From assembly GCF_003334385.1 (NCBI RefSeq), contig NZ_QOWN01000005.1: 64,000 nt of DNA. The stretch is one strand, 5' to 3'. The stretch comes from Escherichia coli. GTDB lineage: Bacteria; Pseudomonadota; Gammaproteobacteria; Enterobacterales; Enterobacteriaceae. Numbering within the stretch: the first letter of the stretch is position 1; the number at the start of each line of letters is the position of its first letter. This document shows positions 15,165 through 15,377 of the stretch, piece by piece. Both the position numbers and the translations under genes were made by a program. Under the pieces are notes generated by a model that saw nothing but the letters and a program-made list of their open reading frames with translations, was not told the DNA's origin and made no database searches.

Positions 15165-15377
15165 TCTGATGCCGCACGTAGGCCTGATAAGACGCGGACA
15201 GCGTCGCATCAGGCATCTTGTGCAAATGTCGGATGCGGCGTGAACGCCTTATCCGACCTACAAAAACAAATTTATCAATGAGTTAGAAATCCCTTTAGGC
15301 CTGATAAGACGCGCCAGCGTCGCATCAGGCATCGTGTGCGAATGTCGGATGCGGCGAAAACGCCTTATCTGACCTAC
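15165..15377. repeat. BIME: two REP palindrome pairs flanking an IHF-like site (TATCAATGAGTTA at 15273-15285)
   Basis: Two copies of GCCTGATAAGACGCG...CGTCGCATCAGGC and its partner REP ...CGGATGCGGCG..GCCTTATC.GACCTAC; the element runs into the mutT stop codon. Confidence 0.85.

Follow-up and report, generated by a model that had tools for sequence, protein, structure and literature searches.

Between yacG and mutT, two convergent genes of Escherichia coli, lies a spacer with an array of repetitive extragenic palindromes (REPs) that reaches into the stop codon of mutT. This raises the question of what kind of element the array is and whether it acts on the genes at either side. No repeats of E. 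coli are more abundant than REPs and the BIMEs composed of them, which have been under study for 40 years. An initial annotation, made from a window of 64,000 nt (the whole stretch of DNA analysed here), considered the spacer to be an ordinary E. coli BIME with two REP pairs around an IHF-like site. Here we type the REPs, compare the linker with that of a known BIME, follow the array through Escherichia and other genera, and weigh what it could do as DNA and as RNA.

Materials and methods

Genes were taken from ORF calling and K-12 annotation, and K-12 positions were obtained as 126807 minus the window position. Direct repeats and palindromes were identified with a repeat finder, hairpins by folding, and terminator-like and promoter-like sites by consensus scan. 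REPs were typed by aligning them globally with the three E. coli REP query sequences (Y, Z1 and Z2) printed in Durrant et al. 2024 (PMC11208160).

Complete E. coli genomes were searched by BLAST with a 901-bp query comprising the yacG-mutT region and with 38-nt linker queries. As control we used the 38-nt linker of the K-12 yaaX-yaaA BIME, which we regard as canonical L. The alignment of linkers comprised 11 distinct sequences from seven Escherichia genomes, and MAFFT was used for the comparison with L. The comparison between species was based on one genome per species and the best 80 mutT loci.

Two tandem Z2/Y units occupy the spacer

In a BLAST search of complete E. coli genomes, K-12 strains match the region 14900-15800 at 100% identity. 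The REP cluster, 15163-15377, corresponds to approximately K-12 111430-111644 and occupies the yacG/mutT spacer; the limits proposed initially, 15165-15377, were accurate to within 2 nt. The 3' ends of yacG and mutT are 215 bp apart and the array lies between the coaE-zapD-yacG and secA-mutT units, extragenic except for a 4-nt overlap with the end of mutT (Table 1). Small ORFs across the array (15109-15243 +, 15336-15602 + and others) traverse the REP palindromes and antisense mutT and were regarded as spurious.

Table 1. Genes and repeat features at the yacG-mutT locus, in window coordinates
Feature	Position	Strand	Remarks
coaE	13588-14208	+	ORF calling, K-12 annotation
zapD	14208-14951	+	ORF calling, K-12 annotation
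yacG	14961-15158	+	ORF calling, K-12 annotation; stop TGA 15156-15158
REP-arm remnant TGTCTGATGCCGCAC	15163-15177		Adjoins yacG stop; 90% complementary to 15206-15215 (inverted repeats)
REP a, Z2-type	15178-15215	+ (GTAG first)	36/37 to published Z2; hairpin -21.3 to -21.8 kcal/mol
Head-to-head linker, unit 1	15216-15226		About 11-12 nt; inside naRNA4 match 15181-15258
REP b, Y-type	15227-15261	- (GTAG first; + strand ends CCTAC)	32/35 to published Y; hairpin -18.8 to -19.2 kcal/mol
Tail-to-tail linker between units	15262-15294		33 nt, A/T-rich, L-like architecture
IHF-like core TATCAATGAGTTA	15273-15285	+	WATCAANNNNTTR 13/13; A-tract before core
REP c, Z2-type	15295-15331	+	TTAG replaces GTAG; 35/37 to published Z2; hairpin -21.4 to -21.9 kcal/mol
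Head-to-head linker, unit 2	15332-15342		Inside naRNA4 match 15298-15374
REP d, Y-type	15343-15377	- (+ strand ends CCTAC)	31/35 to published Y; hairpin -13.1 kcal/mol, mutT sense
mutT stop codon TAG	15374-15376	-	ORF calling, K-12 annotation; inside CTAC of REP d
mutT	15374-15763	-	ORF calling, K-12 annotation
secA	15823-18528	-	ORF calling, K-12 annotation

Alignment to REP consensus had been named beforehand as the check on the initial reading, and all four sequences align well, a and c to published Z2 and b and d to published Y. For REPs a and c the Z1 alignment scores are clearly lower (17 and 14, versus 33 for Z2). The repeat finder returned a direct repeat at 116-117 bp spacing (64 nt at 92% plus 18 nt at 100% identity) and four palindromes with 14-nt arms and 86% complementarity. 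Each REP hairpin has an internal loop, and on both strands its folding energy falls between -13 and -22 kcal/mol. The GTAG foot is present in REPs a, b and d; REP c has TTAG, and its counterparts in PK5074 and Escherichia sp. E1V33 carry GTAG. The REP-arm remnant beside yacG is kept in all Escherichia alleles compared.

REP half-site patterns are strongly over-represented in the 64-kb window (18 versus 0.67 expected and 29 versus 9.9, neither reached in any of 100 shuffles) and form three clusters, the yacG-mutT array and two further REP clusters at 54587-54671 and 59975-60410. The 901-bp query matched a median of 17 places per complete E. coli genome.

It is virtually certain that the spacer element is a known K-12 REP cluster (BIME) made of two tandem Z2/Y units of approximately 116 bp. 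We are no less sure of the design of these units, in which a Z2 and a Y REP stand head-to-head some 12 nt apart, the units being joined tail-to-tail by the 33-nt linker with the IHF core. The two REP pairs around an IHF-like site that had been proposed are thus those of Table 1.

We take the yacG-mutT element to be an annotated REP/RIP element of K-12. In RefSeq NC_000913.3 only CDS features were found at the yacG-mutT spacer, and likewise at the yaaX-yaaA BIME, with no repeat annotation. The REP catalogues and supplementary tables that were searched gave no REP-table entry for mutT or yacG (one gave differential-expression rows only), and a text search of the literature for papers naming a yacG-mutT BIME yielded nothing relevant. 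The literature searched likewise gave no measurement at this locus of mRNA 3' ends, half-life, MutT level or IHF occupancy.

Both other clusters of the window are REP arrangements of their own. The sequence at 54587-54671 is an isolated Y/Z2 pair, tail-to-tail with a 14-nt linker; over the compared stretches (GTCGGATGCGGCG, CTTATCCGACCTAC) its Y copy does not differ from REP b. At 59975-60410, five Z2/Y pairs with a period of 85 bp make up a large BIME-2 array, which is located directly upstream of an ORF that starts MLEDLKRQ. If that ORF is taken as araD the array would lie in the araA-araD spacer, and it appears to be the 'araD-A' BIME that was used as substrate by Ton-Hoang et al. 2012.

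The array also bears on insertion of IS621, an IS110-family element with a bridge-RNA recombinase. REP a contains ATCAGGCCTAC (complement of 15178-15188), reported as a natural IS621 target by Durrant et al. 2024 (PMC11208160), and REP c has ATCAGGCCTAA, one mismatch from it. In E. coli 2011C_3361 an IS621 copy (positions 223-1496 of locus L003) is inserted in REP a of the same BIME, at the equivalent of window 15181/15182, between GTAG and GCCTGAT, with the AG/CT core at both sides.

The linker is locus-specific and carries an IHF-like core

The sequence TATCAATGAGTTA is an exact match to the IHF consensus WATCAANNNNTTR, as had been noticed initially. Across the 64 kb the consensus alone is not significant (five occurrences versus 2.2 expected, and 8 of 100 shuffles reach five); in shuffles of the 35-nt linker it occurs in only 0.7%. 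The core is kept in nine of the 11 distinct Escherichia linkers, with a column variability of 0.03-0.07 within its 13 nt versus 0.22 in the flanks, a comparison that is supportive rather than a formal test since these linkers are related by descent. In one lineage the core is mutated out of consensus. Judging from the sequence, IHF probably binds and bends the linker DNA.

Is this linker a copy of the dispersed L motif? In 1871 of 5426 complete E. coli genomes (34%) the linker sequence is present, each time at a single place, whereas the yaaX-yaaA control, in the same search, is found in all 5426 at a median of 13 places per genome. MAFFT gave no convincing alignment between the two. Identity with the canonical L motif was ruled out by the contrast in copy number together with this poor alignment. 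What both linkers have in common is the architecture. The orientation of the IHF core is the same, and its offsets are 11 versus 12 nt from the Y tail and 9 versus 10 nt from the Z tail (yacG-mutT versus yaaX-yaaA).

Such an architecture invites an explanation at the level of DNA, by which the array would be an IHF-bound, gyrase-binding site of RIB or BIME-1 type that absorbs positive supercoils between secA-mutT and coaE-zapD-yacG. The genes are indeed convergent, the core is perfect, conserved and preceded by an A-tract, its placement is near that of the canonical L, and published work (PMC3333891) reports that IHF, Pol I and gyrase bind to REPs and BIMEs and that these serve as topological insulators. 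The linker is, however, not the canonical L, it is missing from the single-unit alleles that most E. coli genomes carry, and one lineage has lost the consensus. The IHF site is dispensable because two thirds of E. coli genomes lack it. The literature search found no ChIP or footprint report for the site, and the supplements to Kasho et al. 2021 and to Myers et al. 2013, which were searched for IHF occupancy, mention neither mutT nor yacG. We consider a function as DNA-level element improbable.

The product of yacG is a gyrase inhibitor. A functional link between the array and yacG, by way of BIME-2 as a reported gyrase site, was considered; no evidence for it was found and the association was treated as coincidence.

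The array is BIME-2-like or atypical

BIME classes, after Gilson, Bachellier and Hofnung, are summarised in PMC3333891. According to that summary, BIME-1 consists of Z1 and Y, occurs as single copy and has a conserved long L linker, often with an IHF site, and BIME-2 consists of Z2 and Y, with short linkers and its copies in tandem. Chimeras of both are termed 'atypical' BIMEs, and variation in copy number from strain to strain is typical both of BIME-2 and of BIMEs that are atypical (PMC3333891).

The yacG-mutT array resembles BIME-2 in that Y and Z2 alternate in orientation, the head-to-head linker is short, the units are in tandem and their number varies by strain and species. It differs by its tail-to-tail linker, which is long (33 nt), A/T-rich and provided with an IHF core as in the L of BIME-1, whereas the araA-araD BIME-2 of the same window has a 13-nt s-type linker. 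Elements of the BIME-1/RIB/RIP kind are reportedly ordered as REP, IHF site, REP, a scheme said to go back to Boccard and Prentki in 1993. The likeness to these consists of the IHF core between the GTAG ends of Y and Z REPs, in the same orientation and at nearly equal offsets. The differences are that the REPs are Z2 and in tandem and that the linker is restricted to a single locus in 34% of genomes. A strict BIME-1/RIB was rejected since the REPs are Z2 and not Z1, tandem and not single, and the linker is not the dispersed L. The yaaX-yaaA comparison element has itself a Z arm that matches published Z2, not Z1. The array is BIME-2-like or 'atypical', with a locus-specific L-like linker. Its alternating Y and Z2 REPs, in tandem at the 3' ends of two convergent units, agree with the initial view that it is a BIME of the ordinary E. 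coli kind. The presence of an IHF consensus between REPs is insufficient to make a BIME-1/RIB; here the linker that carries it is locus-specific.

Both units are also recognised by the Rfam model naRNA4 (RF02564), with full-length matches at 15181-15258 and 15298-15374 (model positions 1-77 of 77) that score 78.4 and 77.8 bits versus a gathering score of 59.5. The naRNA4 unit was derived from REP325 and is defined as Y-linker-Z2 (PMC4550694), and each yacG-mutT unit is a full-length 77-nt match to it. The array differs from REP325 in that it has two units rather than six, another inter-unit spacer, and a position between convergent genes rather than within an operon. Might each unit then encode a nucleoid-associated ncRNA that acts with HU to form bridges between DNA cruciforms and to condense the chromosome? 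The model of PMC4550694 and the strength of the matches, greater than in the araA-araD BIME where four units only narrowly pass the gathering score (60.2 versus 59.5), speak for it. The Rfam model, on the other hand, recognises in effect any Y-linker-Z2 REP pair, and the proposed nucleoid function is disputed in the literature. We regard this function as very remote. A match to 'naRNA4' should be read as 'Y-linker-Z2 REP pair' and not as a specific sRNA gene.

Among the other Rfam matches of the window, which is chromosomal, is one to PssrA ('plasmid-encoded Shigella sRNA A') at 21494-21583 (-), with 105.5 bits versus a gathering score of 69. Further matches at gathering level are expected K-12 features, namely SgrS (49214-49440), the leu leader (43085-43234), tp2 (4580-4693) and a TPP riboswitch (51197-51296).

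The array overlaps the mutT stop codon and is presumably transcribed from both sides

The GTAG of REP d, read on the minus strand, consists of the last base of mutT codon 129 followed by the TAG stop. The distal REP was initially said to run into the mutT TAG, and it does: the complement CTA at 15374-15376 lies within the CTAC of REP d. In the mutT sense, the hairpin of this REP begins 1-2 nt after the UAG (2 nt for the single hairpin, 1 nt in the centroid of the whole region). According to Liang, Rudd and Deutscher 2015, in the account given by PMC12306157, ribosomes stall at REPs that lie within 15 nt of a stop codon, and translation is lowered. REP d resembles these translation-regulating REPs, as far as that account describes them, since its hairpin lies well within the 15 nt and its GTAG even contains the stop codon. 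The overlap may point to an effect on translation termination as much as on mRNA stability, the latter being a role of REPs in general.

Both strands of the array fold far better than shuffled sequences, with z = -4.6 in the mutT sense and -6.1 in the yacG sense. The consensus scan detected no terminator-like or promoter-like site on either strand within 15159-15373. An intrinsic (Rho-independent) terminator was ruled out as explanation of the array, as no REP hairpin is followed by a U/T-run. Since the spacer has neither terminator nor promoter, both operons must transcribe into the array.

Published data indicate where transcription in the yacG sense ends. Supplementary file 2 of Adams et al. 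2021 (PMC7815308) places a Rho termination region at K-12 111226 (-), with a Rho score of 5.3 and p = 1e-14, which converts to window position ~15581 (+), antisense inside mutT; their method yields one position per window of 800 nt on either side, so the position is approximate. A terminator-like hairpin from the consensus scan, 15574-15592 (+), coincides with it. A Rho region at this place implies antisense mutT transcription that arrives from the yacG side through the BIME, and thus that transcription in the yacG sense is not completely halted by the array. This resembles what has been described for REPs between convergent genes, which act as partial, Rho-assisted terminators and exonuclease blocks (bioRxiv 10.64898/2026.03.23.713779). 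The same study found no global link of terminal REPs to mRNA half-life and a context-dependent REP effect.

At the other end of mutT, a full-length match to Rfam STnc40, a Salmonella sRNA candidate, was found at 15778-15847 (-), with 84 bits versus a gathering score of 45. It spans the secA stop and the secA-mutT spacer. Within it, just upstream of mutT, the hairpin GGCGCAGGATTCTGCGCC is followed by TTTTTT and resembles an intrinsic terminator or attenuator, and it was not picked up by the consensus terminator scan.

The number of units varies within Escherichia

In the BLAST survey of 5,426 genomes, the linker is absent from about two thirds (66%) of E. coli. The linker-less E. coli that were sampled have a single Z2/Y unit and are exactly one unit shorter, and their mutT still ends in a Y REP. 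Unit numbers are two in K-12, one in 13TMH22, three in PK5074, and five in both E. albertii and Escherichia sp. E1V33. Among the best 80 mutT loci, all five other Escherichia genomes contain the array, with approximately two to five units. In these five MutT has 129 aa and the stop, TAG or TAA, forms the first bases of the proximal Y REP; in two Escherichia species TAA replaces TAG, which breaks the GTAG of that REP. At least one Z2/Y unit abuts the mutT stop in every Escherichia allele examined.

In other genera, again among the best 80 mutT loci, yacG and mutT are still convergent and their spacer measures -4 to ~100 nt, without the array. Salmonella is an exception, with an unrelated mutT/yacG spacer of 314-340 nt. 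The short and array-free spacer of other genera leads us to infer that the array was inserted in the Escherichia lineage, into an ancestrally very short spacer, and was later expanded and contracted to between one and five units. Given this variation and its absence from other genera, the array cannot be essential.

The 3' end of mutT differs in other ways between genera. In Buttiauxella and some other genera (ten loci) the stop codons overlap by 4 nt and no spacer exists. A different REP-like palindrome, for instance TAGGCCTGCTAAGCGAAGCGCCAGCAGGC, begins at the mutT stop in nine Enterobacter loci and one Citrobacter locus, and in other Citrobacter genomes the start of a REP-like palindrome lies 6-11 nt past the stop. 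MutT also differs between genera in the length of its C-terminal tail, the protein having 129 to 135 aa. Taken together, these sequences suggest that the 3' end of mutT has been remodelled repeatedly and independently by palindromic repeats.

Two database entries deserve a remark. In the laboratory strain E. coli DTU-1 (NZ_CP026612.1 1804236-1805912) a copy of IS1A splits the 901-bp query and a MutT product is listed twice; IS1 may interrupt mutT there and the strain may be a mutator. The contig QXHL01000193.1 (424 nt, 0.83x coverage), assigned to 'Alicyclobacillaceae bacterium', encodes a Salmonella-like MutT that is 80% identical to the E. coli protein and is probably contamination in the assembly.

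The variation raises the alternative that the array is neutral selfish DNA, a mobile or expandable repeat that is tolerated and has no effect on mutT, yacG or chromosome structure, its overlap with the stop being accidental. That would accord with the range of one to five units, with the many E. coli genomes that have neither linker nor second unit, and with the other genera, which hold mutT and yacG close together without any array. It would also accord with the loss of GTAG, both in REP c and by TAA in the proximal REP of two species, and with a MutT tail whose length varies freely between genera. A purely tolerated repeat fits less well with the Z2/Y unit that every Escherichia allele examined has kept at the mutT stop, with an IHF core more conserved than its flanks, and with very stable hairpins that must be transcribed because no terminator precedes them. 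We judge neutrality of the array as a whole to be unlikely; the extra unit with the IHF-like site may be neutral.

Discussion

The explanation that we prefer is, taken as a whole, quite probable: the array is an ordinary BIME, and its most likely role is that of a row of hairpins in the 3' UTRs of the two operons that blocks exonucleases and serves as a partial, Rho-assisted terminator. For the proposed mechanism as a whole, drawn from the sequence and from published REP biology, we put the chances slightly above even. A non-autonomous repeat would have entered the ancestral short spacer in the Escherichia lineage. The number of units would have changed by recombination between units, by the REP-associated transposase TnpA(REP), or by both. 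Transcribed as 3' UTR of both operons, the array would present four stable hairpins on either strand, which would hold up 3'-5' exonucleases and attenuate read-through. Rho would then put an end to yacG-sense read-through in the stretch antisense to mutT. A ribosome that terminates at the mutT UAG would have to melt the REP d hairpin, because the first hairpin starts so close behind the codon. This geometry of a hairpin at the stop is that reported to reduce translation of the upstream gene, and mutT may be affected likewise.

A more far-reaching idea is that the number of units is a heritable dial on MutT, working through the strength of the stop-proximal hairpin and the gain or loss of the IHF-like linker. 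The hairpin that abuts the mutT UAG has -13.1 kcal/mol in the two-unit allele of K-12 versus -18.8 kcal/mol in single-unit alleles. If MutT translation termination or the fate of the mRNA were tuned in this way, the rate of A:T to C:G mutation would shift between E. coli lineages; we regard the idea as a long shot. In a weaker variant, selection would favour a hairpin at the stop, and REPs would for this reason capture the stop codon of mutT again and again, which would be in line with the independent REP-like palindromes at or near the stop in Enterobacter and Citrobacter.

The yacG-mutT array is real but ordinary. It matches the known properties of E. coli REPs and BIMEs, is already known as such, and behaves as the textbook description predicts, so that it has little importance beyond good annotation. 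The local details that go beyond the papers cited are the conserved, locus-specific linker with its IHF core, the series of one to five units, and the use of the (G)TAG of a REP as the stop codon of mutT. With a natural allelic series of one to five units and a hairpin that touches the stop codon of an antimutator gene, the locus would lend itself well to a test of the proposed influence of REPs on translation termination.
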